A stretch of DNA of 64,000 nt from Acidobacteriota bacterium (GCA_021781455.1 JAJXWV010000041.1:75484-139483); one strand, 5' to 3'; shown: positions 102 through 61,768, counted from the stretch's first letter. Notes: generated by a model not told the origin, from the letters alone. Made by a program: numbers and translations.

Positions 102-178
102 CTGAGTGCTGAGTCCTGAGTGCTGGGTCCTGAGCGGTGTTCTCCACACTCAGGACTCAGGACTCAGGACTCAGGACT
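102..178. repeat. Family A inverted heptamer array, copy A1. Left arm CTGAGTG/CTGAGTC units, 14-nt spacer, right arm four CTCAGGA units.
   Basis: ctgagtgctgagtcctgagtgctgggtcctgag cggtgttctccaca ctcaggactcaggactcaggactcaggact. The arms are reverse complements of each other. Confidence 0.8.
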
Positions 179-184
179 CTCTTT

Positions 185-2056
185 TCAGATTTTCGGTTTG
201 ATGTCGAGGTCGATCTTCAGCGCGCCGTCGACGATGTAGTCGAGCGAATGCGCCTGATGCGCGGCGGCGAAGTATTTCACCGGAGCCTGGGCGGAATTCG
301 AAGTGTCGCCGCTTACAACGGCATTCATCGTCGGCGGCAGCATCGGCAGATAGGCGCCAGCTGCGACCGCACCTTCGCCCGACGAGTACAGCCCCACGGT
401 CAGATCCGTCGAAGGGCGCAGCCTTTTCAGGACCGCCAGCACCTGTTCGAGCGTCCGCGGATCGGGCGGGACGAGCGAGAAGTCGACCTGGTTGAGCACC
501 GTGCCACTGCCGATCAGCAGATAGGCGCTCCCGGTCGACTGATTCTCCGGGATCTTCACGTCGAACGTCTCCACGAACGGATCGCCGCGGAACGGCTTGA
601 GCGTGGCCCGGACCTTCACCGTGTCGCCCGGCGAGATGCGGCCGTTGTCGGGCGGGATGAGCGAGGCGTCCATGAGCCTGGCGGTGCGAAGGTGGTCGTC
701 GTGATGGAGATGGAGCTTGATCCCTTCGATCCGCACGTCGCGGAACTCGTTGGACATCAGGTAGCCCGAGACCACGGCCAGGTACGCCGGGATGGCGCTG
801 CGCGCCTGAGCGCCCGCCCATCCTTCGCGAAGGTGGATCGGAGGGAAACCCTTCAGGTCGATTTCCGAGTCCATCATCACGGTCCGCTCGCCGGCTGCTT
901 TCTGGGCATTGGCAACGACCGTGTCGGCGGCCATGGCCAGGATCAGCGGCGAGAGCTGGGAATGGCGAACGACGTTGACGTGATAGGTCTTTTCGGGGCC
1001 CGATCCGTCGACGGTGAGAGTCACGGGAATCGTGTGCGCCTTCTTCCCCACCTCGCCCATGATGCCGCTGGAGCGGTCCTGCTCGATCTCGCCGATGACC
1101 GGACCGGTGTTGGCCACCTTGAACGAGCTGGCCAGGCTGGGCATCACCGTGACGATCTCGGACTCCGCCATCGGGAAGCTGATCTCGCCGATGTCGAGGA
1201 AGGGATGGCCGAATGCGTAGACGTGGTCGCCGTCGATGTGCGTGACGGTTCCGGTGGCCGCGACGGTGAAGTCGCCGTCGAGCAGCACGGCGGCGATGGA
1301 GTCGCCGGGGGCGAAGCCCTTGCCTGGGGCGGGCGTGGTCGTGGCGCCCGTCGACGTGACGCCGCTCGGCACCGCCACGAATCCCATCTGATCGAGGTAA
1401 CGCCCGAACCTCTGGACGGTTTCCGGAGCGAAGCTCGACAGCGAGAGAGGCACGGCAATCGGTTTCGCGCCGGAAAGTGTGCTCATCTCCGTCGCGCCGA
1501 AGCTCGTGGCGATCTTGTCGAACACGGCGTCCGGCTTCGCGCTGGCCATCGCCTCGAGGAACTCAGGCGCTGAGATGCGCGGAGTGGCCGCGGCGAGGAC
1601 CCCGGAGGGCGTGCCGGCGCTGGCGATCTTGAGCATCTCGTCGATCGGGGTGATGCCGGCGATGGGCTCCTTGGCGAACTGCCAGCCATAGGCCAGCGCA
1701 CCGATGACCTTGCCGTCGATGTAGATCGGCGATCCGCTCATTCCGGCGATCACGCCGGAGCGCCGGACCTCGGGCGAGTCGACCTTGGCCAGGATGATGT
1801 TCTGGTCCGGGCCGATGTTGCGGAGGACGCCGATGATCTCGACATCGAAGCGCACCACCTTACTGCCTTCGAAGACGGTCAGGCCGTAGCCCTTCATGCC
1901 CTTCCGCACCTGCGAGAGGGGCATGGTCGAATCGGCCGTTGCGGCTGTGGCGATCAGGAAGAGGGCACAGATTGTCGGGATGAGCTTGCGCACGGAAGGA
2001 TCAACAGGTGCTCGAGAACGCGCGATTCCCGCCCGTTCCGTCGGCGTTCTGCGCAT
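185..2056 (-). CDS. Secreted serine peptidase (SpoIVB/S55-like GMSGSP active-site motif) with an N-terminal signal anchor
   Basis: The 664-aa minus ORF contains GMSGSPIYIDGKVIGALAYGW, which resembles the catalytic-serine motif of SpoIVB-type peptidases. Start is set at the internal Met (MRRTPTER...LIPTICALFLIATAATA signal) at 2056; the ORF-track start is 2179. This gene is last in the same strand block as the efflux operon. Confidence 0.55.
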   Translation of the reverse strand: MRRTPTERAGIARSRAPVDPSVRKLIPTICALFLIATAATADSTMPLSQVRKGMKGYGLTVFEGSKVVRFDVEIIGVLRNIGPDQNIILAKVDSPEVRRSGVIAGMSGSPIYIDGKVIGALAYGWQFAKEPIAGITPIDEMLKIASAGTPSGVLAAATPRISAPEFLEAMASAKPDAVFDKIATSFGATEMSTLSGAKPIAVPLSLSSFAPETVQRFGRYLDQMGFVAVPSGVTSTGATTTPAPGKGFAPGDSIAAVLLDGDFTVAATGTVTHIDGDHVYAFGHPFLDIGEISFPMAESEIVTVMPSLASSFKVANTGPVIGEIEQDRSSGIMGEVGKKAHTIPVTLTVDGSGPEKTYHVNVVRHSQLSPLILAMAADTVVANAQKAAGERTVMMDSEIDLKGFPPIHLREGWAGAQARSAIPAYLAVVSGYLMSNEFRDVRIEGIKLHLHHDDHLRTARLMDASLIPPDNGRISPGDTVKVRATLKPFRGDPFVETFDVKIPENQSTGSAYLLIGSGTVLNQVDFSLVPPDPRTLEQVLAVLKRLRPSTDLTVGLYSSGEGAVAAGAYLPMLPPTMNAVVSGDTSNSAQAPVKYFAAAHQAHSLDYIVDGALKIDLDIKPKI

Positions 2057-2182
2057 GGTGTCTTTCTCTCCACGGCGGACGGGAAGCATAACGGCTGCCC
2101 AGGGAACCGCGTCCGGCATCGAGCCGGACCGAAGCCGCCGGGCTGGAAGGCCGCTGGCCGGCGGGCAGGATGCCCGCACTCC

Positions 2183-3406
2183 TCACTCGTAGCGGAGCGC
2201 TTCGATCGGGTCGAGCTTGGAGGCTTTGGCGGCTGGATAGATTCCGAAAAGAATGCCGAGAAAAGCGCAGAAGCCGAAGGCCAGGGCGATCGCCCAGATG
2301 GGCGTGTGCACCGGAGGCAGCTCGACGAACTTCTTCAGACCGAACCGGGCAGCTGTTGCCAGGCCGTAACCGCCGGCCACGCCAATGACGCCGCCGAGGG
2401 CCGAGAGGGCGATGGCTTCGATGAGGAACTGCACGAGCACGTCGCGCCGACGCGCCCCGATCGACTTGCGGATTCCGATCTCCCGGGTCCGTTCGGTGAC
2501 CGAGACCAGCATGATGTTCATGATCCCGATGCCGCCGACGAGCAGCGCGATGCCGACCACTGCGGCCATGATCAGCGTGATGTTCAGCAGCACGGTCGAG
2601 ATCGTCTTCATCAGCTCTTCCTGAGCGATGATGCGGAAATCGTTGGGATCGCCTTTCTTGAGGTGATGGCGGGCGCGAAGCACCTCGGTGACCTGCTCGC
2701 GCGCCAGATCGAGATCGCTGCCGGGGCGCATCTGGAACGCCAGCACGAGCTTGCGCATGTTCTCGCTCCCGAAGATCACCGTGGCGGTGGAGAACGGGAT
2801 CAGGACGATGTCGTCCTGGTTGTTTCCGAACGTGCCACCCTTCTTCTCCATGATTCCCACCACCGTGAAGGTGGTGTTATTGATCTGGATGAGCTTGCCG
2901 ATCGGATTGGTGCCGAGCTTGAGCTTCTCCACGACGTCCAGCCCGATCGTGCAGACGTCTTTGCGGCCATCCTGGTCGATGGGTGTGAAGAAGCGTCCGT
3001 GCTCGACCCAGTGGTTGACGATCTCCTGGTAGACGTCGCTGACCGCATACAACTGCACCTGGTGATGAGCGTCGCCGTACTTGAGCGAGGCGTTGGCGAT
3101 GTAGATGGGGGTGAACTCGCCGATGGCCGTCGTGGCGCGGCGCACGGCATTGGCGTCGTCGATGGTGAGGTCGGGCAGTTTCTGCAGAAACGGGTTCCGC
3201 TGCTCGCCGGGATCGGGATAGACCTCGATGAAGTTCGATCCGATGCCCTGCAGGTTCTGGGAGATGTTGTACTGCATTCCCTGGACGAGCGAAACGACGG
3301 CGATGACCGAAGCCACCCCGATCATGATGCCGAGCACGGTCAGGATCGAGCGGAGCTTGCTGGCCCAGATGGCACGCAGGGCGATCTTTATGTTTTCGAG
3401 GAGCAT
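2183..3406 (-). CDS. macB: MacB-type ABC transporter permease (FtsX fold, MacB periplasmic domain)
   Basis: MLLENIKIALRAIWASKLRSILTVLGIMIGVASVIAVVSL ... DPIEALRYE, the typical MacB/LolE permease architecture. Start is moved to Met at 3406 because the upstream 30 codons of the ORF-track model are the family A repeat translated (STQHSVLSTKK). The start is 5 nt after the stop of the four-helix-bundle gene. Confidence 0.85.
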   Translation of the reverse strand: MLLENIKIALRAIWASKLRSILTVLGIMIGVASVIAVVSLVQGMQYNISQNLQGIGSNFIEVYPDPGEQRNPFLQKLPDLTIDDANAVRRATTAIGEFTPIYIANASLKYGDAHHQVQLYAVSDVYQEIVNHWVEHGRFFTPIDQDGRKDVCTIGLDVVEKLKLGTNPIGKLIQINNTTFTVVGIMEKKGGTFGNNQDDIVLIPFSTATVIFGSENMRKLVLAFQMRPGSDLDLAREQVTEVLRARHHLKKGDPNDFRIIAQEELMKTISTVLLNITLIMAAVVGIALLVGGIGIMNIMLVSVTERTREIGIRKSIGARRRDVLVQFLIEAIALSALGGVIGVAGGYGLATAARFGLKKFVELPPVHTPIWAIALAFGFCAFLGILFGIYPAAKASKLDPIEALRYE

Positions 3407-3410
3407 CTTT

Positions 3411-3818
3411 TTAGTGCTGAGTACTGAGTGCTGAGTACTGAGTGTGATTGCGCGGGCCTGCAATCGAGGCCCGTAAACCGCCGATGATCCGGCCAACTTC
3501 TTCAGCTCGTTCGAGGAGCACTTTCAGCGCCGGTTCGCTGATGTAGTCGACATCGAAGGCAATGTAGAGCTGTGTTCTCAGCTCGGCACAGGAGCCCTTC
3601 GCCACCGAAAGGAACTGGTGAAATTCCGAGCGGCGTGCGCGCTCGAATCCCTCCGCGATATTGGAAGGAATGGAGACGGCTGCTCGCCGAATCTGATCCT
3701 GCAAAGAACGGTCAGTCCAGAACGGCCTGCGGCGAGTGACGACGTAGACATCGCGCACGAGCGTTCGGGCCTTTTGCCATGCGATGAGATCCTCGAAGCG
3801 ATCAACTCGTTTTGCCAT
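3411..3818 (-). CDS. Four-helix-bundle protein (TIGR02436 / 23S rRNA intervening-sequence protein family)
   Basis: 135 aa. MAKRVDRFEDLIAWQKARTLVRDVYVVTRR...IPSNIAEGFERARRSEFHQFLSVAKGSCAELRTQLYIA matches the conserved core of the family (IPSNIAEG, GS..EL..QL). The gene sits between the macB ATPase and permease genes and is flanked on both sides by family A arrays. Confidence 0.8.
   Translation of the reverse strand: MAKRVDRFEDLIAWQKARTLVRDVYVVTRRRPFWTDRSLQDQIRRAAVSIPSNIAEGFERARRSEFHQFLSVAKGSCAELRTQLYIAFDVDYISEPALKVLLERAEEVGRIIGGLRASIAGPRNHTQYSALSTQH
3413..3445. repeat. Family A heptamer array, copy A2, CTGAGTA/CTGAGTG orientation. Left arm of the pair that brackets the four-helix-bundle gene.
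   Basis: gtgctgagtactgagtgctgagtactgagtg. It overlaps the 3' end of the four-helix-bundle CDS (encoding ...YSALSTQH). Confidence 0.8.
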
Positions 3819-3873
3819 GAGTTGATTGTCCCTCGGTCTACGAGAATCGGCGAAAACTCTACCCCGCGAAGAC

Positions 3874-3937
3874 TCACTCAGTACTCAGCACTCAGTACTC
3901 AGCACTCAGTACTCAGCACTCAGTACTCAGTACTCGG
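3874..3937. repeat. Family A heptamer array, copy A3, CTCAGTA/CTCAGCA orientation. Right arm of the pair around the four-helix-bundle gene.
   Basis: ctcagtactcagcactcagtactcagcactcagtactcagcactcagtactcagtactcgg, nine tandem heptamers that end at the macB ATPase stop codon. Confidence 0.85.
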
Positions 3938-3938: not shown

Positions 3939-4631
3939 TCAGACGATCTTCCCATCCCGAATGTGGATGATCCTCTTCGCTTCGTGGGCCACGTCGTCTT
4001 CGTGGGTGACCATGATGATCGAGTTCCCGCGGTTGTGGAGCTCGCGGAAGAGGTCGAGGATCTCGCGGCCCGTCTTGGAATCGAGGTTTCCGGTGGGCTC
4101 GTCCGCCAGCAGCAACGACGGGCGATTGACGAGAGCTCGGGCGATGGCCACGCGCTGGCGCTGACCGCCGGAGAGCTCGTTCGGCTGGTGGTTCATGCGT
4201 TCGCGCAGGCCGACCGCCGCCAGAGCCTCTTCGGCCAGATCGCGGCGCTCGTGACGCGGGATTTTGGCGTAGATCAGCGGAAGCTCCACGTTCTGCAGGG
4301 CCGTCGTGCGCGGCAGGAGATTGAAGGTCTGGAAGACGAACCCGATCTTCTTGTTGCGGATCGCCGCCAGCTCGTCGTCGTCCATCGACTCCACGGGCGT
4401 GCCGTCGAGCAGGTACTTCCCGTCGGTGGGCCGGTCGAGGCAACCGATGATGTTCATCAGCGTCGATTTTCCGGAGCCTGACGGACCCATGATGGCCACG
4501 TACTCGCCGTTCTCGATGATCAGGTCGACGCCGCTGAGGGCATAGATCTGCTGCGGACCGAGCTCGTACACGCGCTTCAGCCCGTGCATCTCGATCAGGT
4601 TCGCCGGAGCCGATTCTGCGACAGCGCTCAT
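3939..4631 (-). CDS. macB: MacB/LolD-type ABC transporter ATP-binding protein
   Basis: Walker [11 protein letters not shown]-loop, signature [15 protein letters not shown], Walker [14 protein letters not shown]-loop MVTHE. 230 aa. Confidence 0.9.
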
Positions 4632-12660: not shown

Positions 12661-13009
12661 TCGTGGTGAATTCGATCTGCGTGCAGAGGATATCGGAACG
12701 CGGCCGGCAATCGCCTGTCATTCCGAGGCGGCGAAGCGAGGCGAGGAATCCCGCCTTCTTCACCTCCGCCCACTGCTCGACTGAAGTGGCGAGGAAAGAA
12801 ACGGTGACGCGCAATCAGCGGACTGCCTGTCGCCCTGCCGTTTTGTGCAAGGAAATCTTCGCGTGGCGCGCAGAAACTTCGAGCCAGCAGTACAGGGGGT
12901 TCGCAAACTCCGGTACCGTCGCTGTGCTACTAACCACCAAATTCTTCGCGCCGCCAAGAGATTCTGTCGGGCGCTACGTGCCCTCAACACTGATGAACCA
13001 ACGCGAGTT

Positions 13010-13158
13010 CGGCGGCCTGACGGCCGCCGCTAAATTGTGTCGGCGGCTACGCCGCCTGTTCTCGCCCTGACCGAAGAGTCGGCCACGGTCAAAGCCGGCG
13101 AAGCCGGCGACATCATTTAGCGGCGGCCGTCAGGCCGCCGGCGGCCGTCAGGCTGCCG
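13010..13158. repeat. Family I hairpin element, locus 1. Two inverted copies of AATTTAGCGGCGGCCGTCAGGCCGCCG about 80 bp apart, plus a third partial copy.
   Basis: cggcggcctgacggccgccgctaaatt at 13010-13036 and atttagcggcggccgtcaggccgccg at 13115-13140. Each unit contains a GGCGGCC-loop-GGCCGCC hairpin. The region lies between the divergent murJ and FAD-oxidoreductase genes. Confidence 0.75.
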
Positions 13159-13371
13159 AACCGGGAACACGCATTACATGATTGAGGGCGCGTAGCGTCC
13201 GACAGCATTTCGGTTGCGGGCAAGCGCAGCGAGCGGTCTCTGTCTCTCCGTGTTCTCTGTGGTGAATTCTTGCCAGCCTCTCCGGACGACACGCACCTGC
13301 CCCCCGCGCTCTGCTCCGCGCTCTCATTGCGGAATTCGCTCCCGCACCGACGCGATACCATAGCTCTGCCC

Positions 13372-17292: not shown

Positions 17293-17606
17293 CGAGTGGC
17301 CCACTGCATGGACCCGTGTGGCGCCTCGATACCGGGCGTAGAGGCGTCGTCGGGTCGCAGCAAGCTCGACAATTCGTCGCACGAGAGTTATTGCGAGCTT
17401 AACGGCAGTCGAACTTACGTTAGGCCAACGACTTCCCGCCCGCTGACAAGATGCGGAATGGAGCCCACCGGGAGGCGGTTGAACACGCGTGCGACGCGAG
17501 TCGACACTGTTTCATTGACCCTGCGCGCCCACGACACCTAGAATGGACGGGCCAGGTCAGCCACTCGCATCATTCCACGCAGGAGCAGAAGGGGGGGAAT
17601 TCGGGG

Positions 17607-17813
17607 ATGCCTCTCGTCCACGTCAAAGAAGACGAAAGCTTCGAGAATGCGCTCCGCCGATTCAAGCGGAAATGTGAGAAATCCGGGATCCTCTCGGAAC
17701 TCAAAAAGCGCCAGCATTACGAAAAGCCGAGCACGAAGCGCAAGAGAAAAGCCATCGCTGCCCGCAAGAAAGTGCTTCGCAAGCTTGCAGAAGAGCGTCG
17801 CACTGGCTACTAG
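17607..17813 (+). CDS. rpsU: 30S ribosomal protein S21
   Basis: [48 protein letters not shown]..., the canonical S21 sequence. RBS aggag 10 nt upstream of the ATG at 17607. Confidence 0.95.
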
Positions 17814-17838
17814 CCCCAACAGCACGCAGAACCAAAAA

Positions 17839-17863
17839 GGACTCGCCCCGCGAGTCCTTTTTT
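17839..17863 (+). terminator. Rho-independent terminator after rpsU
   Basis: ggactcg cccc gcgagtcc followed by tttttt. Confidence 0.8.
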
Positions 17864-17876
17864 GTTGGCTGAGACA

Positions 17877-17965
17877 AATGGGACCGATGGGACCACTGGG
17901 ACCGATGGGACGCGTGGGACAGTCTCATAGGTCCCATTCGTCCCATCGGTCCCATTCGTCCCATT
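17877..17965. repeat. Family C inverted nonamer array (GATGGGACC units x5, spacer, GTCCCATYG units x4)
   Basis: atgggaccgatgggaccactgggaccgatgggacgcgtgggacag tctcatag gtcccattcgtcccatcggtcccattcgtcccatt. Confidence 0.85.
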
Positions 17966-18029
17966 TTGTCGACCGCGACACGTTCCTCTCTCGATCCCAA
18001 TTTCGGAATACACACCGCGTACCTCGACT

Positions 18030-20417
18030 TTGATCGGATTGCACGTGTCCACCCCCCGAACCAGCCTCACCACGCTCGAGCTCGATCGCGTGCTGACCCT
18101 CGTGGCTCTCGAGGCGAAGAGCGAGCCCGGCAAGCGGGCCGTCCTGCGGAAACAGCCCTTGCCCACGATCGAAGCATGCGAGCGCGCTCAGGTCGAGCTG
18201 GCCGAAATGGTGCGCTTCTACCTCACCGACGGTCTGCTGCCCCTCGCCGGCCTCACCGAGGTCGAACCGCTTTTTGTCCGGGACACGGTGCTCGAGCTCG
18301 AAGACTCGTGGCAGATCGTGCGCGCCATCCGCGCCACCCAGGCCATTCGCGAGACGTTTCTCCGCGTCGACACCTACCCCCGCCTCACTGCGATTGCGCG
18401 CACCCTCCCCGACCTCGGCGGACTGATCACGAAGACCAACAAGTACTTCACGCGCGACGGCAAGCTGCGCGAGGACGCATCGCCGGAGCTGCGCTCGATC
18501 CGCACTCGCGTCCACCAGAAGCGTTCTGCGATCCAGCGCGTCCTCAACGACGTCATGAACCGCAACGCCGACGCCGTTCAGGAGCCGCTCGTCGTCCAGC
18601 GCGGCGACCGCTACTGCATTCCGGTGCGGAGTGACCACCGGAACTCCGTGCCCGGCATCCTCCACGAGCGATCGGGCTCGGGCGCTTCGTTTTTCATCGA
18701 GCCGATGGCCAGCGTCGAGCTGAACAACGATCTCGCCGAGCTCCTCCTGCAGGAACGCGAGGAGATCGGGCGGATCACGCGGGTGATCGCGCAAATGCTG
18801 CTCGACGAGGCTCAGTCGATCAGCGCGGCCGTCGAATCTGCCGCCGATTTCGACTGCCTGCAGGCTTGCGCGATCTTCCACCGCACCGTCGAGGCCACGC
18901 GTCCCGCGTTCAGCGCCGACCGCCGGCTCCACGTCATCGATGGCCGGCACCCGCTCATCGACGAGCGGCTGATGGACGCGCGCGTCACCGCGTTGGGTGA
19001 AGAGGCGAGCGACCAGAAAGTCGTTCCCATCACGATCAGCCTCGACGCTGATGCGCCTGCCCTCGTCGTCAGCGGACCGAATGCCGGCGGCAAGACCGTG
19101 GCGTTGAAAACGGCCGGACTGCTCGTAGCCATGGCCATGAGCGGCCTTCCCGTCCCGGCATCGGACGGAACGGTCATTCCGATCGTCGACGCCCTGCACG
19201 TCCTGATCGGAGACGACCAGAGCGTGCTCGAGCACCTCTCCACGTTTTCGGCCTATCTGCTGCGCCTGAAACGCGTGCTCGATCGGGCCACGGACCGTTC
19301 GCTGGTCCTTCTCGACGAGCTGGGCTCGGGAACCGATCCCGAGGAAGGCGCGGCGCTCGCGGCCGCGGTCATCGAGCATCTCCTCGCTGCGGGAGCGCTG
19401 CTGATCGCCACGACGCATCTCTCGGCGCTGAAGACTTTCGCCGTCAACGACGGGCGCATCGTGAACGCCTCGATGGAATTCGACTCAGCAACCGGCCATC
19501 CGACTTATCACCTGATCTCCGGGATTCCCGGACGCAGCCGGGCCATCGACGTGGCCCAGATGATCGGCCTTCCCTCCTCGGTCATCGCCAGCGCGCGCGA
19601 GCGCCTCGGCGACCGGTATGGCGAGACCGATCAGCTCCTGGCACAGCTGCAGGCCCGAATGTCCGAGGTGTTGCGGCAGTCGGACGCGCTGGCCGATTCC
19701 AGGCGTGCCCTCGAATCCGAGCAGGTGCGTCTCGCCGCCGCCACCGAAAAACTCGAAAAGGAACGGATGCGCGCCGGCACGGCTTTTCGGGAAGAGCTGG
19801 AGAGATTGCGCGACGACGTCGGCAGGCAGGTCAGCAACGAGCTGCGGCAGCTTCGCGAGCTCGATCGCAATGCGCGCGCGGCCGTGAACACCGCGGAAGT
19901 GCTCAAGAACGTCACGCAGCCGGTCGACAAGGCCATGCAGTTTCTGCCTGCCGAGCAGCGCGAGGTCCGCGCCGGCGAGCGCGCGGAGCATCGCAGATTC
20001 AAGGTGACCGGCGAGATTGTGTCGATCGACGGCAGCAAGGCCGTGCTCAAGGTCAATGGCCGCAAGATGACGGTCGAGCTGCGCGACCTGGTGCCGCTGG
20101 CTTCCGCTCCGCAGCCGAAGAAGCAGTCGAAATACGCGGCCGCCCAGCCCTCTCACGGTGACGACGCCGTGGAGATCTCGGCGGAGCTCAACCTGATTGG
20201 TCAGCGCGTCGAGGAAGCGCTGGACGAGTCCGATCGGTTCCTCGACCGCTCCCTGCTGGAAGGGCGCCAGGCCGTGCGCATCATCCACGGCTTCGGCACC
20301 GGGAGGCTCCGCTCCGCGATTCGCGAGCACCTGCGCAAGCATCCAGCGGTGAAGTCGTGGAGACCTGGAGATGACAACGAAGGAGGAGACGGTGCGACGG
20401 TCGCCGTTCTCGGCTGA
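18030..20417 (+). CDS. mutS2: Endonuclease MutS2 (MutS domain plus C-terminal Smr domain)
   Basis: Walker A VVSGPNAGGKTVALKT, Walker B LVLLDELGSGTDPEEG, C-terminal Smr domain (LNLIGQRVEEALDESDRFLDRSLLEGRQAVRIIHGFGTGRLRSAI). It lies between rpsU and dnaG. Confidence 0.9.
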   Translation: MIGLHVSTPRTSLTTLELDRVLTLVALEAKSEPGKRAVLRKQPLPTIEACERAQVELAEMVRFYLTDGLLPLAGLTEVEPLFVRDTVLELEDSWQIVRAIRATQAIRETFLRVDTYPRLTAIARTLPDLGGLITKTNKYFTRDGKLREDASPELRSIRTRVHQKRSAIQRVLNDVMNRNADAVQEPLVVQRGDRYCIPVRSDHRNSVPGILHERSGSGASFFIEPMASVELNNDLAELLLQEREEIGRITRVIAQMLLDEAQSISAAVESAADFDCLQACAIFHRTVEATRPAFSADRRLHVIDGRHPLIDERLMDARVTALGEEASDQKVVPITISLDADAPALVVSGPNAGGKTVALKTAGLLVAMAMSGLPVPASDGTVIPIVDALHVLIGDDQSVLEHLSTFSAYLLRLKRVLDRATDRSLVLLDELGSGTDPEEGAALAAAVIEHLLAAGALLIATTHLSALKTFAVNDGRIVNASMEFDSATGHPTYHLISGIPGRSRAIDVAQMIGLPSSVIASARERLGDRYGETDQLLAQLQARMSEVLRQSDALADSRRALESEQVRLAAATEKLEKERMRAGTAFREELERLRDDVGRQVSNELRQLRELDRNARAAVNTAEVLKNVTQPVDKAMQFLPAEQREVRAGERAEHRRFKVTGEIVSIDGSKAVLKVNGRKMTVELRDLVPLASAPQPKKQSKYAAAQPSHGDDAVEISAELNLIGQRVEEALDESDRFLDRSLLEGRQAVRIIHGFGTGRLRSAIREHLRKHPAVKSWRPGDDNEGGDGATVAVLG

Positions 20418-20443
20418 GACCCGCTCAGGGCTTGGTTCCGCGG

Positions 20444-20511
20444 TTCCGCGGTTCCGCGGTTGCGCAGTGGACGTCGACCGCGGAACCGCGCAACCGCGCA
20501 ACCGCGCAACC
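20444..20511. repeat. Family B inverted octamer array (GGTTSCGC x4, spacer, GCGSAACC x4), copy B1
   Basis: ggttccgcggttccgcggttccgcggttgcgc agtggacgtcgacc gcggaaccgcgcaaccgcgcaaccgcgcaacc. It lies immediately 5' of the dnaG start. The ORF-track N-terminal extension RNRATAQPRNHA is this repeat translated. Confidence 0.85.
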
Positions 20512-20516
20512 ATGCC

Positions 20517-28899: not shown

Positions 28900-29073
28900 G
28901 CCTCCGATTTCTACCGCATTCCGGAACGGCGCAGGTGCGAACCGCGTCACGAGACGTCGTGGTTGTCCGGGACGCCGCACACGTGTGCCTCCAAAGCGGT
29001 CCCCGCACCGGTCATCGTGGCCGCGTACTCATCGCTTGTGGTCCCGCTGGGGTTGATCCTGTCCGTGAATTCA

Positions 29074-31620: not shown

Positions 31621-31629
31621 CGGCAGATC

Positions 31630-33459: not shown

Positions 33460-33547
33460 GCCTCGGTGGCGGAATGGCAGACGCTGCGGACTTAAAATCC
33501 GCTGCTCCGTGAGGGGCGTGCCGGTTCGAGTCCGGCCCGAGGCACCA
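33460..33547 (+). tRNA. tRNA-Leu (anticodon UAA), with long variable arm
   Basis: gcctcgg tg gcgg aatggcag acgc t gcgga cttaaaa tccgc + 17-nt variable arm + gccgg ttcgagt ccggc ccgaggc a cca. Cloverleaf folds with T-loop TTCGAGT and encoded CCA. Confidence 0.85.
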
Positions 33548-33551
33548 GACG

Positions 33552-33650
33552 AGCGGGAAGCGGGCAGCGGGTAGGACGACGGTGCTCGCCACCATCCGCG
33601 CCTCCTACCCGCTACTCGCTACCCGCTACCCGCTACCCGCTTCGTTATCA
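33552..33650. repeat. Family G inverted heptamer array (GCGGGWA x3, spacer, CGCTACC x5)
   Basis: gcgggaagcgggcagcgggtagga cgacggtgctcgccaccatccgcgcc tcctacccgctactcgctacccgctacccgctacccgc. It directly follows the tRNA-Leu 3' end. A half-copy occurs at 42906-42930. Confidence 0.8.
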
Positions 33651-33686: not shown

Positions 33687-34862
<1,176 letters not shown>

Positions 34863-34865
34863 CCT

Positions 34866-34953
34866 CTATTTAGGATCTGAGATTGATGATTGATGAACCG
34901 ATGAAGGAGTGGGCTCATCGGTTCATCAATCATCAATCTCAAATCTCAAATAG
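34866..34953. repeat. Family F inverted heptamer array (TTGATGA-type units)
   Basis: ctatttaggatctgagattgatgattgatgaaccgatga aggagtgggc tcatcggttcatcaatcatcaatctcaaatctcaaatag. It sits between the convergent ACAD and HEAT-repeat genes. Confidence 0.85.
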
Positions 34954-34958
34954 CGGCG

Positions 34959-37768: not shown

Positions 37769-37935
37769 CGGGGCGGGAATGATACTTCGCGTGAGTGGGA
37801 GCCGCGATTGCGCGACGGCGGCCGCACCAAGCGCAGAATGAAGCGGTTCGAAGGAAGAACAAGTCGCCCACGCCCTTCTTAGTTCTTGGCTCTCCGGGAT
37901 TGGGTCCGGCGAAATTTCGAAGAGGGCACTCCAGG

Positions 37936-38147
37936 CGGCGTAGCCGCCGTAAGAATTTAGCGGCGGCCGTCAGGCCGCCGGAGCAAGCGATCGCATCGGC
38001 GTACGAGGGCACGAAGTGCCCGACAGGAGGCCGGGGAAGCAGACCCGGGATCTGTCGCGCGCTACGCGCGCTCGGACGCTGGGTCGGTCCGATCGGACGG
38101 CGGCCTGGCGGCCGCCGCTAAATTATGCCGGCGGCTCCGCCGCCTCG
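37936..38147. repeat. Family I hairpin element, locus 2. Inverted copies of AATTTAGCGGCGGCCGTCAGGCCGCCG separated by about 115 bp.
   Basis: aatttagcggcggccgtcaggccgccg (37954-37980) and cggcggcctggcggccgccgctaaatt (38098-38124). Like locus 1, a ...ATGCCGGCGGCTCCGCCGCC... extension follows the second copy. The region lies between the divergent M61 peptidase and Ser/Thr kinase genes. Confidence 0.75.
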
Positions 38148-40764: not shown

Positions 40765-40867
40765 GAGTGCTGAGTACTGAGTGCTGAGTACTGAGTGGTG
40801 GAACCGGAAGCAGGCCTTTGTTGTGCTCGTGACACTCAGTACTCAGCACTCAGTACTCAGCACTCAG
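40765..40867. repeat. Family A inverted heptamer array, copy A4
   Basis: gagtgctgagtactgagtgctgagtactgagtg + 37-nt spacer + ctcagtactcagcactcagtactcagcactcag. It starts 4 nt after the kinase stop. Confidence 0.85.
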
Positions 40868-45760: not shown

Positions 45761-45813
45761 GCCTCCCCCAAGCTGGTTTTCGAAAACGGCGGCCGCGGGC
45801 CGCCGTTTTCTCT

Positions 45814-45937
45814 AGTGCTGATTCCTGAGTGCTGAGTACCGAGTTCCGCCGTGCGATCGAGCGCCTCGTTCCGCGTCTCGTACCTGTCGCCCCAATCGCC
45901 GACTCAGTACTCAGCACTCAGTACTCAGTACTAAGAT
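45814..45937. repeat. Family A inverted heptamer array, copy A5 (57-nt spacer)
   Basis: agtgctgattcctgagtgctgagtaccgag ... ctcagtactcagcactcagtactcagtact. Confidence 0.8.
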
Positions 45938-48106: not shown

Positions 48107-48245
48107 CGCAGCGCGACTGGGCAGCCCTCATCCCTCAGACCTCATCCCTCGACATGGTCACTTATAATGCCGCCCGCACGAACCGGGGGGCGCGTGCTTC
48201 CTGCCTGTCACCTCGGCTCGCCGTCTCTGAACGCGGAGGTATTCC

Positions 48246-49646: not shown

Positions 49647-49767
49647 GAGTGCTGAGTACTGAGTGCTGAGTACTGAGTGGCGAGTACTGAGTGGCGAGTA
49701 CTGAGTGCTGAGTGGCGACGCCGCCGCTCGGCATTGACTCAGTACTCAGCACTCAGTACTCAGCACT
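49647..49767. repeat. Family A inverted heptamer array, copy A6 (long left arm with GAGTGGC variants)
   Basis: gagtgctgagtactgagtgctgagtactgagtggcgagtactgagtggcgagtactgagtgctgagtggc gacgccgccgctcggcattga ctcagtactcagcactcagtactcagcact. Confidence 0.85.
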
Positions 49768-49772: not shown

Positions 49773-50186
49773 ATGACAGAACAGACGACGAGCCCACACG
49801 TCGACACACGGGGCCTGACGCGCGATCAGCTTCTGCAGATCGAGTACTACCTCCGTCTGACGCGTGCGCTGGAGGAGCGGCTGGTGGCGCTGTTCCGGCA
49901 GTCGAAGGTGATCGGAGGCCTCTATCGCTCCCTCGGGCAGGAGGGCGAGTCCGTGGCCGCCGCCTATGCGCTCGATTACAAGCAGGGCGACGTCGTGCAG
50001 CCGCTGATCCGCAACATGGGCGCGATCCTCGTGGCGGGTGCAAGACCTCTGGACATCGTGCGGCAGTACATGGCCAAGGGCGACTCGCCGACTCGCGGGC
50101 GCGAGCTGAACATCCATTTCGGACATCCGGCGCGGGACGGATTCATCGGCCAGATCTCGATGCTCTTGATCAGTGCCGATCACTGA
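49773..50186 (+). pseudogene. Truncated 2-oxoacid dehydrogenase E1 component alpha subunit. Only the N-terminal ~137 codons remain. The 3' part and the E1 beta gene are absent.
   Basis: LTRDQLLQIEYYLRLTRALEERLVALFRQSKVIGGLYRSLGQEGESVAAAYAL...GDSPTRGRELNIHFG is collinear with the first third of PdhA/BkdA1. The frame stops at 50186, where family A copy A7 begins. The E2 gene follows 100 bp later. Confidence 0.7.
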
Positions 50187-50250
50187 GAGCTGAGCACGCG
50201 TCGAATGACTCGGTAACGACACTCAGTACTCAGCACTCAGCACTCAGCAC
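50184..50250. repeat. Family A heptamer array, copy A7 (weak left arm, right arm ctcagtactcagcactcagcactcagcact)
   Basis: ctgagagctgagcac gcgtcgaatgactcggtaacgaca ctcagtactcagcactcagcactcagcact. Confidence 0.75.
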
Positions 50251-50289
50251 TTCGATTGCATATGCTTCTTGTCCTGCAGGAGTGAGCAA

Positions 50290-51786: not shown

Positions 51787-52944
51787 ATGCGCGTTTGCGA
51801 GCTCCACAAGCTTCACCTCGTCACTTACGAGAATGGGATGAAGCTGCAGCAGAAGCTCGTCGAGCTGCGTCAGACCGAGCAGATCCCCGATCAGCTGCTG
51901 CTCCTCGAGCATCCGCCGGTGATCACGCTCGGCCGTGGCGGCAACGCTGCGAACCTGCTCGCGAGCGGCGAGCGGCTGCGAGCCGAACGCGTCCGCTTTT
52001 TCGAGACCACGCGCGGTGGCGACATCACCTACCACGGCCCCGGCCAGGTCGTCGGATATCCGATCATCCACCTCGGCGAAGGCAATCGCGACGTTCGCAA
52101 GTACGTCACCAAGCTCGAGGAAGTGCTGATCCGAACCGTGGCGCACTACGGCATCACCGCCGCACGCGTGGAGGGGAAGCGCGGCATCTGGGTCGGCAAC
52201 GACAAGATCGCCGCGATCGGCGTGCGCATCGCACGATGGGTGACCTCGCACGGTTTCGCCCTCAACGTCGGCACCAATCTCGATCACTTCCGTCTGATCA
52301 CGCCGTGCGGCCTGCACGGCACCGGCGTCACTTCGATCGAGCGCGAGATCGGACGGACCATTCCAATCGAGGAAGTCCGGGATCTCCTGGCTGCAAAGTT
52401 CGCCGAGGTCTTCGAGCGGGAGATGGTCCCGCGGCCGGAGAACATCCGGCTGATCAAGATCGTGCTGCACGACGCCGGCAATCGCGTGCTGCTACTGCAT
52501 CGCAAGCCGGAACGGGGCAATTTCTGGCAACCCATCACCGGGGCAATCGAGAAGGATGAGGCGCCGCTCGAGGCCGCCCGCCGCGAGCTTCTCGAAGAGA
52601 CGGGCACGGCCGGCGAGCCGCGGCCGATGGGCATCACCCAGTCGTTTCTGATCGAGTCGACGTTCCTCTCCTCGCGGCTCGGTGCTCTCGTCATCGCCAG
52701 CGAGGTCGGCTTCGAGATGCCCGTCGACTCTTCGATTCCGATCCGCATCGATCCCGAGGAGCATGACGGCCACGGCTGGTTCACCTTCGGCGAGGCCTAC
52801 GAGAAGATCCGCTGGACCGACGACCGTGAAGCGCTCGAGGAGCTGGAAACGCGGTTGTGCGGCCCCGCGATGGCACAGTTCCGCGATGACGACGAAGAAG
52901 AAACCGCGCAACCGCGGAGCCGCGGAACCGCGCAACCAGTATGA
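51787..52944 (+). CDS. lipB: Octanoyltransferase LipB fused to a C-terminal Nudix hydrolase domain
   Basis: LipB part: HPPVITLGRGG, TTRGGDITYHGPGQVVGYPII, KIAAIGVRIARWVTSHGFALNV (with the catalytic Cys in PCGLHG). Nudix box: GAIEKDEAPLEAARRELLEETG (Gx5Ex7REUxEExGU) at residues about 250-272. The C-terminal tail ETAQPRSRGTAQPV is a family B octamer array translated. Confidence 0.8.
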   Translation: MRVCELHKLHLVTYENGMKLQQKLVELRQTEQIPDQLLLLEHPPVITLGRGGNAANLLASGERLRAERVRFFETTRGGDITYHGPGQVVGYPIIHLGEGNRDVRKYVTKLEEVLIRTVAHYGITAARVEGKRGIWVGNDKIAAIGVRIARWVTSHGFALNVGTNLDHFRLITPCGLHGTGVTSIEREIGRTIPIEEVRDLLAAKFAEVFEREMVPRPENIRLIKIVLHDAGNRVLLLHRKPERGNFWQPITGAIEKDEAPLEAARRELLEETGTAGEPRPMGITQSFLIESTFLSSRLGALVIASEVGFEMPVDSSIPIRIDPEEHDGHGWFTFGEAYEKIRWTDDREALEELETRLCGPAMAQFRDDDEEETAQPRSRGTAQPV

Positions 52945-53894: not shown

Positions 53895-54173
53895 ATGCCG
53901 CGCGTCACATTCGTGGATGAGCAGAAAGCGGCAGAGTTTCCCGCCGGAAAGACCATCCTGTCCTGCGCCGGAGAAATGGGCGTACAAGTCAGTCACGTCT
54001 GCGGCGGAGACGGCGCGTGCGGGACTTGCAGGATCGAAGTCGTTGTGGGTTGGGACAACCTCACGCCGCCGACGCCCGATGAGACATACAAAGAGCTCGA
54101 GCCACCTCACCGCCTCTCCTGCCAGTCGAAACTGGTCGGGGACGTGGTGGTCAAGGTGGCCAAGATTGATTGA
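53895..54173 (+). CDS. 2Fe-2S ferredoxin
   Basis: CGGDGACGTC...C spacing of plant/adrenodoxin-type [2Fe-2S] ferredoxins. 92 aa. Confidence 0.75.
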   Translation: MPRVTFVDEQKAAEFPAGKTILSCAGEMGVQVSHVCGGDGACGTCRIEVVVGWDNLTPPTPDETYKELEPPHRLSCQSKLVGDVVVKVAKID

Positions 54174-54238
54174 GACCAGAGACCGCAGACCACAGACCGC
54201 AGGATCCACTGCGGTCCGTGGTCTGTGGTCTGCGGTCC
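54173..54238. repeat. Family E inverted heptamer array (GACCRCA x4, spacer, TGYGGTC x4)
   Basis: gagaccagagaccgcagaccacagaccgcag gatccac tgcggtccgtggtctgtggtctgcggtc. Confidence 0.85.
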
Positions 54239-55048: not shown

Positions 55049-55060
55049 TCGCTTCTTCAA

Positions 55061-55125
55061 CCACAGAGGACACAGAGAGCACAGAGTGAAGAAGCGTCTC
55101 TGTACTCTCTGTGTCCTCTGTGGTG
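55061..55125. repeat. Family D inverted array (CACAGAG-cored 9-mers)
   Basis: ccacagaggacacagagagcacagag tgaagaagcgt ctctgtactctctgtgtcctctgtgg. Confidence 0.85.
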
Positions 55126-55177
55126 AAAAGAAAACGGCGGCCTTCGCCGCCGTTCAAACAAAGACACTCTTTGCGAC

Positions 55178-56495: not shown

Positions 56496-56572
56496 GGCGG
56501 TGTAGCTCAGCTGGTTAGAGCGGGCGTCTCATAAGCGCTAGGTCACTGGTTCGATTCCAGTCACCGCCACCA
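56496..56572 (+). tRNA. tRNA-Met (CAU anticodon, elongator type). The tRNA-Ile(k2C) alternative is not excluded.
   Basis: ggcggtg ta gctc agctggttag agcg ggcgt ctcataa gcgct aggtc actgg ttcgatt ccagt caccgcc acca. Fully paired acceptor stem, CCA encoded. Confidence 0.8.
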
Positions 56573-56625
56573 AATTCGCTTTCCCCACTTCTGTCGCGAC
56601 TGCACCTGTGGTCCGACGGCCACGA

Positions 56626-56705
56626 GGTTGCGCGGTTGCGCGGTGGACGGCGACGATCGTCGGGTCTGACACCGCGCAACCCCGCAACCGCGGAACCGCG
56701 CAACC
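56626..56705. repeat. Family B inverted octamer array, copy B3
   Basis: ggttgcgcggttgcgcggtgg acggcgacgatcgtcgggtctgacac cgcgcaaccccgcaaccgcggaaccgcgcaacc, directly downstream of the tRNA-Met. Confidence 0.85.
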
Positions 56706-56719
56706 GGTTGGGCGGGCGG

Positions 56720-59175: not shown

Positions 59176-59419
59176 ATGACCGGAGGTGCGGCGTTCAGCC
59201 CGCCGCTCGGCAGCCTCCGGACCGGCCAGTGTTCTCCTTCAGCGGCCGGGCAGGATGCCCAGCCGCCGGCCGGCTGGAAGCCGGCACTCCGGTCCGAAAG
59301 CGGATCGGAGTCGGCCGTGCTCAACTCAGAATTCAACGGCTCTGGTCAGCGTTACGGTTCCGCGTTAGTGTACGAATGGCACGCGTGACGCATCGGCGTG
59401 CTCTTCTGGAGGCAATCCG

Positions 59420-61390
59420 TTGAATTCCACTGTCAAAACCGCGCTCCTCTGGGTGGTCATCATCGTTCTGGTGTTCCTCCTGTGGAGTCTGTTCCAGACG
59501 ACCAAGGGGACGAGTGAGCCGATCGCATTCAGCGCGTTCCTCGACAAGGTCAATTCGGGACAGGTCGAGAAGGTCACGATCCGCGGCGACGAAATCCGCG
59601 GCGATACGAAGGCCACCGCTCCGGGCGGCAAGCGTGAGTTCCACCTCAACGCCCCGTCCAACTACCCACAGATGTACGACCAGCTCCGCGCCAAGGGCGT
59701 CATCATGGAGTTCGAGCCGAAGGGCGACGCTCCATTCATCACCGCCCTGATCGGCTGGGCTCCGGTGCTCTTCCTCATCGGCCTCTGGATCTTCTTCATG
59801 CGCCAAATGCAGGCTGGCGGAAACAAGGCTCTGTCATTTGGCAAGTCGAAGGCGAAGCTCCTCACCGGAACCGCCAAAAAGGTTACCTTCAAGGACGTCG
59901 CCGGCGTCGACGAGGCGAAGCTCGAGCTGCACGAGATCATCGAGTTCCTCAAGGAGCCGCAGAAGTTCACGAAGCTCGGCGGCAAGATCCCGAAAGGCGT
60001 GCTGCTGATGGGGCCGCCGGGAACCGGCAAGACCCTTCTCGCGCGCGCCATCGCCGGCGAGGCGAACGCGCCCTTCTTCTCGATCTCCGGTTCGGATTTC
60101 GTCGAGATGTTCGTCGGCGTGGGAGCTTCGCGCGTCCGCGACCTTTTCGAACAGGGCAAGAAGAACGCGCCCTGCATCATCTTCATCGACGAGATCGATG
60201 CGGTCGGACGTCATCGCGGTGCGGGCCTGGGCGGCGGTCACGACGAGCGCGAGCAGACGCTCAACCAGCTCCTGGTGGAGATGGACGGCTTCGAGTCGAA
60301 CGACGGCGTGATTCTGGTCGCCGCCACCAACCGCCCCGACGTCCTCGATCCCGCGCTTCTCCGCCCGGGCCGCTTCGACCGGCGCGTCGTCGTCGATCTT
60401 CCCGATCTGAAGGGGCGCGAAGGAATCCTCCGCGTCCACACCCGAACCATCCCGCTGGCGGAGGACGTCGATCCGAGCATCCTCGCGCGCGGCACGCCTG
60501 GATTCTCGGGCGCCGACCTGGCGAACCTCGTCAACGAGGCGGCGCTCAACGCCGCGCGTTACGACAAGAAGAAAGTGCAGATGGTCGACTTCGAGTTCGC
60601 CAAGGACAAGGTCCTCATGGGCGTCGAGCGCAAGTCGATGGTCATGAGCGATCGCGAGAAGAAGAACACCTCCTACCACGAGTCGGGTCACACCATCGTG
60701 GCGGCGATCCTCCCGGCGGCCGACCCGCTGCACAAGGTCACGATCATTCCCCGCGGCCGCGCCCTCGGCCTCACGCAGCAGCTGCCCACTGAGGACAAGT
60801 ACTCGTATTCGAAGCGCTATCTCGAAGCGATGCTGGCCGTGCTGATGGGCGGACGCATCGCCGAAGAGGTCTTCCTCAACGAGATCACCACCGGCGCCGG
60901 CAACGACATCGAGCGTGCCACCGGCATGGCCCGGCGCATGGTCTGCGAATGGGGCATGTCAGACCTTGGGCCGGTCACCTTCGGAAAGAAGGAAGAGGCC
61001 ATCTTTCTGGGGCGCGAGTTCGCCCAGCACCAGGACTTCTCCGAGGCCACGGCCATCGACATCGACAAGGAAGTGCGGCGCATTCTCGACAAGGCCTACA
61101 CCACGGCCAAGGAGATCATCGTCACGAACAAGACCGCCCTCGACAAGATCGCGCGCAAGCTCCTCGAGCGCGAGACGCTCGAAGGATGGGAAGTCAACCA
61201 GATCCTCGTCGAGGAGACGGGCGTCGACTACATCAAGCAGAAGGAGTACTACCCCGAAGAGGCGGCCCCCGGCGAGAAGATGACCATTGCGCCGGGATCC
61301 GGGCCGTCGACGGACGTGCAGTCGCCTGTTCCGACGCCGCCCGCGAACCCCAGCCCCGCCCCGGCGCCGGCTCCCGAGCGGAAGACTTAG
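59420..61390 (+). CDS. ftsH: ATP-dependent zinc metalloprotease FtsH
   Basis: Two N-terminal TM helices, AAA+ Walker [12 protein letters not shown], zinc site HESGH, Pro-rich C-terminus. Confidence 0.95.
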
Positions 61391-61656
61391 GGCTATCCTT
61401 CGATATCCATGGAACGCCGGCTTCGTGCCGGCGTTTTCATCTTCGGCAATGACCGCCACCAGACCGAGCACGTCTTCTTCGTGATGAAAGACGGGCAGGT
61501 GTACAGAAACAACCGCTGAAGTTCGCTGCGCAGATCCTGAACTTCACTTCCTCACGCCGAAGTATCTGCGGTTCAAATCCGCGGATACTTCCGCTGCTCC
61601 CTCGCTGCGCGCCTCCAGGAGACTTTCAGTGGTTAAGAAGGTTCGCGTGTTCGTTG

Positions 61657-61768
61657 CCCCTCTCCCCGCTGCGGCGGGGAGAAGGTGCCGAAGAGGGAGG
61701 GGTCTCCTTTGAACGCGAACGAAACCCCTCACCCCGGCCCTCTCCCCGCTGCGGCGGGGAGAGGGGGA
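61657..61768. repeat. Family H: two copies of the REP-like hairpin CCCTCTCCCCGCTGCGGCGGGGAGARGG, about 80 bp apart
   Basis: cccctctccccgctgcggcggggagaaggtg (61657-61687) and ccctctccccgctgcggcggggagaggggg (61739-61768). Each forms a ctccccgc/gcggggag stem. Confidence 0.75.

Follow-up and report, generated by a model that had tools for sequence, protein, structure and literature searches.

Intergenic hairpins built of inverted arrays of 7-9-nt units in an Acidobacteriota genome: possible gene-less relatives of the intervening sequences of 23S rRNA

The present analysis concerns a 64,000-nt stretch of DNA from an Acidobacteriota bacterium (GCA_021781455.1, JAJXWV010000041.1:75484-139483; the window hereafter), in which gaps between genes hold hairpins whose two arms are a tandem array of a 7-9-nt unit and an array of its reverse complement. 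One of these hairpins encloses a gene for a four-helix-bundle protein of family PF05635, the family to which open reading frames (ORFs) carried by intervening sequences (IVS) of 23S rRNA belong. We lean, without great confidence, towards the reading that the hairpins are stem-loop elements designed like ORF-bearing IVS and sited between protein and tRNA genes. Its best-supported part is that hairpins of family A (CTGAG-type units) are gene-less members of an IVS-like class whose full form carries the four-helix-bundle gene. The other heptamer families are probably gene-less members likewise, and we infer that families B, C and D, with units of 8-9 nt, fall in the same class as family A. Close homologues of the proteins encoded in the window are annotated as Thermoanaerobaculia, Acidobacteriota.

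A four-helix-bundle gene enclosed by inverted heptamer arrays

The gene-bearing hairpin lies between the two genes of a MacB-type ATP-binding cassette (ABC) transporter. Loci fetched for comparison carry numbers with the prefix L; L203 and L204 belong to GCA_041643075.1, a relative about 90% identical to the window. The parts of the cassette are as follows.

2183-3406, minus strand: permease of the MacB-type ABC transporter, one flank of the cassette
3411-3818, minus strand: four-helix-bundle protein gene (135 aa, 408 nt), the cargo in the loop of the family A stem 3413-3444/3876-3935
3413-3444: array (AGTGCTG/AGTACTG)n, one end of the cassette, overlapping the stop codon of the four-helix-bundle gene and stopping 6 nt short of the first base of the permease coding sequence (3406)
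3876-3935: array (ACTCAGT/ACTCAGC) of 8.6 copies, partner of 3413-3444, starting 3 nt beyond the stop codon of the ATPase gene and lying 57 nt upstream of where the four-helix-bundle gene starts; in the ortholog L203 the copies number 4.5
3939-4631, minus strand: MacB-type ABC ATPase, the other flank

The two arrays are mutual reverse complements that enclose the PF05635 gene. An earlier reading made from the sequence alone (the sequence-only reading) had put the spacer between arms at 7-60 nt and overlooked the gene enclosed here. Its product gave 112 bits against TIGR02436 (cut-off 24) and 123 bits against PF05635 ('23S_rRNA_IVP' or 'S23p'), with a weak bAvd match, and the nearest solved structure is PDB 2GSC, XCC0516 of Xanthomonas campestris (E 5e-15). 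PADLOC returned no match for the protein. A diversity-generating retroelement has Avd beside a reverse transcriptase, with template and variable repeats; this class was rejected, the DivGenRetAVD model giving 27.5 bits against a cut-off of 80, with ABC transporter genes as neighbours and no reverse transcriptase.

Compared with the copy in L203 (10001-10408), the ratio of nonsynonymous to synonymous divergence (dN/dS) is 0.067, which points to a functional gene under purifying selection. Synonymous divergence (dS) over the same comparison is 1.39 for the cargo versus 0.45-0.52 for both flanking ABC genes, while dN/dS is alike, about 0.07, in all three; the cargo has either been replaced from other copies or is mutating faster than its surroundings.

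The association of gene and arrays recurs among relatives of the gene. The sample comprised 80 metagenomic loci holding such relatives and six added cassette loci, 86 altogether, of which 74 had at least 150 nt on both sides. A period-7 array upstream with its reverse complement downstream (unit match of at least 6/7) was present in 41 of these 74, an array on one side or more of the gene in 66, and visual checking found degenerate arrays upstream of the gene in nearly all relatives. Arrays occur at 1.27 per kb within 350 nt of the gene versus 0.16 per kb elsewhere in these loci, an eight-fold difference, and the gene-side arrays have period 7 in every case. The cassette units include CTGAGTG/A, CTGAGGA, CTGAGTC, ATGAGTG/C/A and ATGAGCA; the same cassette occurs, besides the window, in a Phycisphaerae metagenome-assembled genome (MAG; L064) and in the relatives L203 and L209. 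Protein identity averages 65.7% within a unit class and 63.8% between classes (2 of 2000 permutations), and the nearest neighbour belongs to the same class for 28 of 43 gene copies, a covariation so weak that shared descent and specific recognition are not separable by it. A conserved leader motif, GAGGGACAAT, was found in only 5 of 82 loci.

The sequence-only reading had noticed that arrays run into the ends of ORFs and yield recurrent peptide tails, and this was borne out: among the closest homologues of the cargo (60-86% identical), 23 of the 28 retrieved, many on contigs of about 1 kb, end in tails such as TQHSALSTQH, TQSSVLSPQS and THHSSLITHH, which are heptamer arrays read as protein. 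Two viral contigs of IMG/VR (L212 1410-1866 and L213 297-752) carry a 45%-identical gene within inverted (GAACGTT)n arrays. They are the only relatives of the gene in the viral collection, so phages are not its main carriers.

Tandem-array hairpins in the window

Tandem arrays were located with Tandem Repeats Finder, a repeat search and a hairpin scan, and all three agree on the places. The shared plan first proposed, in which tandem copies of a 7-9-nt unit precede tandem copies of the reverse-complement unit, stands, as do the unit families A-G. Thirteen sites have two arms and a short spacer, the left arm of two of them being weak or degenerate; the cassette is the one split pair, and one array is solo. 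Under cluster criteria of arms of at least 18 nt, at least 80% complementarity and a loop of at most 120 nt, the window has 17 hairpin clusters, of which 10 pass a strict test for periodic arms; in 30 second-order Markov simulations of the window, clusters averaged 1.5 and periodic ones never arose. The tandem-arm hairpins are thus non-random, as the sequence-only reading had expected, and the evidence supports a genuine class of elements in which several unit sequences follow one plan of construction. Folded as RNA, the sites reach -44 to -93 kcal/mol, with z = -4 to -15 against dinucleotide shuffles, the exception being the half-site 50183-50253 (z = -1.8).

Other parts of the first description needed correction. 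Not almost every gap is occupied, but 14 of about 40 (gaps of at least 20 nt), roughly one third, with two more sites overlapping gene ends. Copy numbers, thought to be equal in the two arms, are often unequal (9.7 versus 4.4 at 49647-49767; 4.4 versus 8.6 at 3413/3876), and the distance between arms ranges from 1 to more than 400 nt. At 13007-13161, 31892-32057, 37933-38145 and 61651-61772 the long inverted repeats belong to other kinds and are not tandem. The neighbours named as rpsU, ferredoxin, IscA-like, lpd, kinase and two tRNA genes are right, but the gene before 52902-52937 is a lipoate-protein ligase/NUDIX fusion and not an acyl-CoA dehydrogenase. Besides the cassette, the sites are these.

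102-179: hairpin of family A, with a 13-nt loop between the arms 102-134, (CTGAGTS)n, and 148-179, (ACTCAGG)n, -55 kcal/mol, z -9; on one side the Peptidase_S55 gene (185-2179, minus strand) has its stop, and on the other the next gene (minus strand) starts with the ATG at 91
17873-17966: family C hairpin, period 9, arms (ATGGGACCG)n 17873-17920 and (GGTCCCATN)n 17922-17966, -63 kcal/mol; after rpsU and a canonical terminator (17840-17868), before mutS2
20429-20516: family B hairpin, period 8, arms (GGTTCCGC)n 20429-20472 and (GCGSAACC)n 20473-20516; fills the whole mutS2-dnaG gap, its end abutting the dnaG start codon (20517)
33552-33643: family G hairpin, period 7, arms (AGCGGGN)n 33552-33576 and (CTACCCG)n 33603-33643; 5 nt past tRNA-Leu
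34862-34957: family F hairpin, 43-nt arms 34862-34904 and 34915-34957 with (GATTGAT/GATGA) units, -61 kcal/mol, z -11.7; between convergent genes
40765-40867: family A hairpin, 33-nt arms 40765-40797 and 40833-40867 that are 100% complementary, 35-nt loop, -70.5 kcal/mol; a Ser/Thr kinase gene on one side and a GGDEF gene on the other
45813-45933: family A hairpin, arms 45813-45844 and 45902-45933, 57-nt loop; adjoins a canonical terminator (45790-45812), with the thrC start codon 13 nt on
48122-48150: solo array (CCCTCAT/CCCTCAG)n, partnerless, upstream of lpd; not present in L204
49647-49767: family A hairpin, arms 49647-49714 and 49737-49767, copies 9.7 versus 4.4, -93 kcal/mol, z -14.7; begins at the base after the lpd stop codon and ends 5 nt before the E1alpha start codon
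50183-50251: family A half-site, arms 50183-50197 (degenerate, CTGAGAGCTGAGCAC) and 50220-50251 ((CACTCAG) x4.6)
52850-52937: family B site, arms 52850-52869 (weak) and 52902-52937 ((AACCGCGS) x4.5); inside the lipoate ligase/NUDIX gene at its 3' end, with lipA close behind
54173-54237: family E hairpin, period 7, arms (AGACCRC)n 54173-54202 and (GYGGTCT)n 54209-54237; its first base is the last base of the ferredoxin stop codon (gene 53895-54173)
55060-55124: family D hairpin, period 9, (CACAGAGNN)n, arms 55060-55086 and 55098-55124; after the IscA-like gene, with a canonical terminator (55135-55160) next
56626-56706: family B hairpin, arms (GGTTGCGC)n 56626-56645 and (GCGSAACC)n 56670-56706; 53 nt past tRNA-Met

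Family A accounts for seven array sites at six loci, that is, the intact cassette (3413-3935) and five gene-less sites of the CTGAGTR family, with loops that are mutually unrelated; family B (GGTTSCGC) accounts for three sites, all of a single polarity. The arrays stand at the 3' ends of genes and within operons, not at promoters, and several stems finish 0-13 nt upstream of the next start codon. The rpsU-dnaG cluster (17451-22256) has a MutS2 gene (MutS_V and Smr domains) in between, and both of its gaps hold tandem-arm hairpins, of families C and B. Tandem-arm arrays also begin repeatedly 5-55 nt from tRNA 3' ends (window 33460-33643 and 56496-56706; L125 4-115), and in L125 the array adjoining the tRNA leads into a four-helix-bundle cassette.

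Turnover, polarity and loss of the gene

Comparison of orthologous gaps, which the sequence-only reading had proposed, showed that sites are often retained while units, copy numbers and loops turn over quickly. Between the window and L203/L204, hairpins persist at equivalent sites, with changes in copy number (8.6 versus 4.5), uncompensated unit variants, and loops that cannot be aligned beside conserved flanks. A hairpin is also present at the 102-179 site in L203 and L208, with unrelated loops; the ortholog of 45813-45933 in L204 has a 6-nt loop and GTC/GTG unit variants; and in the lpd-E1alpha gap L204 has arms as in the window with a different loop, and the more distant L206 has a (GGGGTAG)n hairpin. 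Presence itself varies, since L203 has a (TTCTGMR)n hairpin at 4108-4265 where the window genome (L001) has none, and tandem-arm hairpins are absent from two or three equivalent gaps in L209 and L210. Such fast replacement of loops suggests exchange by recombination through the arrays.

The gap between the ABC ATPase and permease genes was compared among relatives with permeases 73-93% identical. The window and L203 have a CTGAGTR cassette there, and the cassette of L209 has the unit CTGAGTC. In L208 the gap is occupied by a gene-less (GGGCATG)n hairpin, in L211 by a (GATTGAG)n hairpin, and in L210 by a non-tandem palindrome. The 92-nt loop in L208 encodes SATLSEAESVARIIGKLRMTVGRQRG, which corresponds to the C-terminal 26 residues of the four-helix-bundle protein (E 2.5e-5). 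Similarly, what the loop of a (GTAAGTC)n hairpin in the Chloroflexia MAG L031 retains of the gene is its start codon with some 45 residues of the N-terminal part (E 9e-7). We propose that gene-less hairpins arise, at least in part, by internal deletion of the gene.

In all, 1.38 Mb of fetched loci contain 91 periodic-arm hairpins, 79 of them of period 7. Hairpins of CTGAG type have a fixed polarity, (CTGAG..)n, loop, (..CTCAG)n, in at least 43 cases against 0, never reversed. The genome scan pattern (CTGAGTR)x3+CTGAG gave at least 118 loci, in Acidobacteriota, Nostocales (Cyanobacteria), Chloroflexota, Planctomycetota, Nitrospirota, Gemmatimonadota, Chlorobi, Bacteroidota and others. Fixed polarity together with one unit across phyla reflects either common descent or a sequence-specific constraint. 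Among 33 hairpins with non-CTGAG heptamers (loci L005-L211), the left arm contains AGT in 9 and ACT in 2; these small numbers hint that the polarity rule extends beyond the CTGAG family.

Comparison with known systems

The nearest parallel is the ORF-bearing IVS known from Leptospira, Coxiella burnetii, Brucella and Haemophilus (PMC4990558), in which a PF05635/S23p ORF is looped out by flanking inverted repeats. The IVS of C. burnetii carries its S23p ORF, now decaying, in the loop of a stem whose 5' side has two to three tandem GACAGAT heptamers, their number depending on the strain, and RNase III cuts at the first repeat (PMC4990558). The cassette and its relatives share the enclosed ORF, the stem heptamers of varying number, the sporadic distribution across phyla and the tendency of the ORF to decay. 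They differ in that the arms are arrays of 4-10 units in gaps between protein or tRNA genes, and in that RNase III cleavage is here argued by analogy. The class of IVS proper was rejected for the cassette, since it requires a position in helix 9, 25 or 45 of 23S rRNA and the cassette lies between ABC transporter genes, although a PF05635/S23p ORF inside and inverted repeats that pair around it are both present.

Against the earlier suggestion that this class lacks an established description, the same architecture has been reported in Geobacter metallireducens (PMC2700814) and in Xanthomonas (PMC4692102). The sites of the window conform to the paired tandem sites of these two papers, having at least three units per arm, opposite strands, variable spacing, a mostly intergenic location and multiple copies. 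In the G. metallireducens genome the paired sites, with 3-5 tandem repeats of 7-9 nt set on opposite strands a variable distance apart, fall into three classes (GTTGCTYN, TCTCCGTS[Y] and MTYCTGA; 8-24 pairs per class) and were guessed to bind IHF/HU or a global regulator (PMC2700814). They too lie near or between genes (one pair between proB and proA) and several unit classes coexist in one genome; the (TTCTGMR)n of L203 is close to class 3 and the (GTTGCCG)n of L211 to class 1. Compared here by description, they differ in that PMC2700814 reports no link to a four-helix-bundle gene. In X. campestris and X. axonopodis pv. citri there are 70-75 convergent GGGAATC pairs per genome, conserved in position and varying in length and sequence (PMC4692102). 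These are likewise intergenic inverted heptamer arrays, mostly between co-directional genes, with some intragenic; their G-rich unit, by contrast, is unrelated to those of the window, and they were studied as formers of G-quadruplexes with no cargo gene noted. X. campestris nonetheless encodes the four-helix-bundle protein XCC0516 (PDB 2GSC).

More distant resemblances are to the TAACTGA repeats of Beggiatoaceae, Cyanobacteria and Bacteroidetes, direct repeats ahead of start codons that were proposed to be translation signals (PMC4679880), and to the short tandemly repeated repetitive (STRR) sequences of cyanobacteria. These share heptamer arrays, a CTGA core and a patchy cross-phylum distribution, but the TAACTGA repeats are nearly all direct, with one inverted set among 170. 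For long simple sequence repeats of 5-11 nt in general, PMC4679880 cites Mrazek (2007).

The view that the elements are neither CRISPR nor classical repetitive extragenic palindromic (REP) sequences was upheld. CRISPR arrays have constant direct repeats of 24-48 nt with unique spacers of similar length, whereas the units here are 7-9 nt, run head to tail and have an inverted partner. REP sequences and bacterial interspersed mosaic elements (BIME) of enterobacteria are palindromes too, placed between genes or cistrons, and they form RNA stems by which the mRNA upstream can be stabilised. A REP, however, is one imperfect palindrome, about 35 nt long and conserved at its head, that moves by means of a REP-associated tyrosine transposase (RAYT). 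The elements of the window differ in having tandem arrays as arms and several unrelated units, and no RAYT was found there. A miniature inverted-repeat transposable element (MITE) has terminal inverted repeats, a target-site duplication and internal sequence common to the copies; the loops here are unrelated and five family A sites have no duplication.

A literature search found no paper linking intergenic paired arrays to four-helix-bundle genes, and only the Coxiella IVS paper (PMC4990558) has gene and heptamers together, within one 23S rRNA IVS. The reports on Geobacter and Xanthomonas both left the paired-array architecture unexplained.

Proposed mechanism and points against it

According to the model, the full form consists of a heptamer run, a short leader, the PF05635/TIGR02436 gene and a complementary heptamer run, usually over the stop codon. 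Transcribed within an operon, the two arrays would pair into a double-stranded RNA stem of 25-35 bp with periodic mismatches, long enough to be cut by RNase III as IVS stems are. Cleavage would separate the flanking cistrons and free the cargo mRNA where there is one, so that the stems would serve as processing sites inside operons. At the DNA level, arrays would gain and lose units by slippage, with loops and units quickly replaced. The recurrence of stems in equivalent gaps speaks for a role in the host or for sites that are permissive, while fixed polarity, a cross-phylum unit and the fact that some relatives dispense with the stems speak for descent from a spreading element, one that we would regard as selfish rather than host-serving.

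Several observations weigh against this model. RNase III processing is drawn from analogy only. Rfam found no rRNA in the window, where two tRNAs are the sole matches, nor in 20 cassette loci, which gave only tRNAs and no known RNA family; the elements are therefore not IVS in the strict sense, their design otherwise matching. Equivalent gaps hold hairpins whose units differ by lineage, an observation that would fit a host requirement for a stem just as well. Neither a transposase nor a reverse transcriptase was seen near the elements, nor any target-site duplication, so that the model gives no account of how they spread. Gene remnants were found in only 2 of the 60 ORF-less loops whose length allowed a test, none of them in the window; the other 58, mostly very short or unrelated, had none, and an origin by deletion is proven for the two cases only. 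Among the CTGAGTR-array loci listed (at least 118), the gene is adjacent in one and within 5 kb in two more, so most arrays are gene-less (many of them single) and an array does not predict the gene, the reverse association being strong. In 1.3 Mb of fetched loci, families B, C and E were absent, and the patterns of D and G had one and four isolated matches. The arrays flanking the gene are all heptameric, and for families B, C and D, with units of 8-9 nt, no link to it was demonstrated.

Alternative explanations

The hairpins could instead be intercistronic RNA structures selected by the host and evolving in place, with the four-helix-bundle gene as an occasional passenger, an explanation to which we give perhaps one chance in five. 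The stems would then give mRNA differential stability, protect its 3' end, direct processing or govern the start codon just downstream; slippage would make the tandem units, and compensatory or templated changes would preserve the complementarity of the arms. It accords with the lineage-specific units at the ABC ATPase-permease gap, the lpd-E1alpha gap and the 3' end of the S55 peptidase gene, with the many stems that end just before a start codon, and with frequent unit switches between related gene copies, 15 of the 43 having a nearest neighbour of another class. However, selection for pairing alone yields no polarity, so the fixed orientation of the CTGAG hairpins counts against it, as does the identical unit in many phyla. 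The hairpins missing from L209, L210 and L001 imply that the stems are dispensable, and the arm changes between orthologs are not compensatory.

A somewhat less likely, speculative possibility is that the arrays drive a kind of DNA movement not yet described, as portable homology arms or as recognition sites of the ring-forming four-helix-bundle protein, and that loop contents are copied between hairpins, a process that might be called 'array homing', with gene-less hairpins as landing pads. Array homing would explain the fixed arm polarity, the single unit in many phyla, the unalignable loops of orthologous hairpins despite flanks about 90% identical, and the three-fold greater synonymous divergence of the cargo than of its neighbours. 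If true, it would provide a function for the large PF05635 family and for bacterial heptamer repeats generally.

It is improbable that the arrays are double-stranded DNA sites for an oligomeric nucleoid protein or global regulator, with inverted arrays binding two assemblies head to head, as in the IHF/HU-like proposal for G. metallireducens. Fixed polarity and a conserved core (CTGAG, AGT) would suit sequence-specific recognition, and the cargo family, which makes pentameric rings (PDB 2GSC), could itself bind. Nevertheless, the unrelated 7-, 8- and 9-nt units of one genome would demand several binders, and the wide range of inter-arm distances and the location away from promoters do not fit. 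An element resembling the foldback elements of Drosophila is, if anything, slightly less credible: multi-copy families within one genome (A and B), fixed polarity and presence/absence polymorphism among relatives agree with it, but the loops of family members are unrelated, none of the five family A sites has a target-site duplication, array length varies between arms and between orthologs, and no transposase adjoins any hairpin. Finally, Rho-independent terminators, a role suggested by the sequence-only reading and by GC-rich stems after stop codons, or generic low-complexity sequence of a GC-rich genome, can be practically dismissed: no U-tract follows any stem in the 12 nt downstream, canonical terminators stand beside three hairpins, several hairpins lie inside operons directly ahead of a start codon, and the simulations yield none, from which it follows that the hairpins are not the terminators of these genes.

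Rearrangement at arrays and other repeats

The link to rearrangement made in the sequence-only reading has two instances. Of the E1alpha of a 2-oxoacid dehydrogenase, the ORF 49773-50186 encodes no more than 131 conserved residues at the N-terminus, with 88% identity to residues 13-130 of the 340-aa protein in L206; the rest of E1alpha and the whole of E1beta are missing, the junction is the CTGAG-type half hairpin 50183-50251, and E2 comes next. The operon of L206 is intact (lpd-E1alpha-E1beta-E2), and the loss reflects a recent deletion at an array or else an error of assembly. Secondly, the MAG assemblies GCA_027325785.1 (L001) and GCA_027388875.1 (L002), from one population, are identical to the right of L001 9896 and wholly different to its left; the break point corresponds to window position 3924, inside the array 3876-3935, and is either a recombination between arrays at different loci or a chimeric join. 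Arrays thus either promote rearrangement or mislead assemblers.

Several non-tandem repeats were also observed. A palindromic family with core CGGCGGCCTGACGGCCGCCGCTAAAT and arms of 45-48 nt, about 90% complementary, occurs at 13007-13161, 37933-38145 and L001 650-800, giving at least three copies in the window genome, and has a REP- or MITE-like look. Another palindromic intergenic repeat (GTCATCCTGAGCCGGCGAAG...GGATCTC...) is found at L001 19629-19842, L203 800-1251, and L210 2373-2501 and 5586-5703; in L210 it fills gaps that hold tandem-arm hairpins in relatives. The inverted repeat at 61651-61772 has 32-35-nt arms (CCCTCTCCCCGCTGCGGCGGGGAGA), each a small palindrome, and a 52-nt spacer. 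At 31892-32057 there is a 57-nt inverted repeat with a 31-nt core that is 94% complementary, within a region (29000-33400) of 58-61% GC, compared with about 64% elsewhere, which may be foreign or mobile DNA.

Significance

Many bacterial genomes contain tandem heptamer repeats in excess, four-helix-bundle proteins of family PF05635 occur in great abundance, and IVS interrupt 23S rRNA; all three have been known for 15-30 years and kept separate, with the repeats, the function of the proteins and the origin of the IVS each unexplained. The evidence gathered here ties them into one object, a gene-in-a-stem cassette with its gene-less derivatives, which resides in ordinary operons across many phyla. 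In practical terms, the arrays break or mis-join metagenome assemblies and add repeat-encoded tails to annotated proteins.

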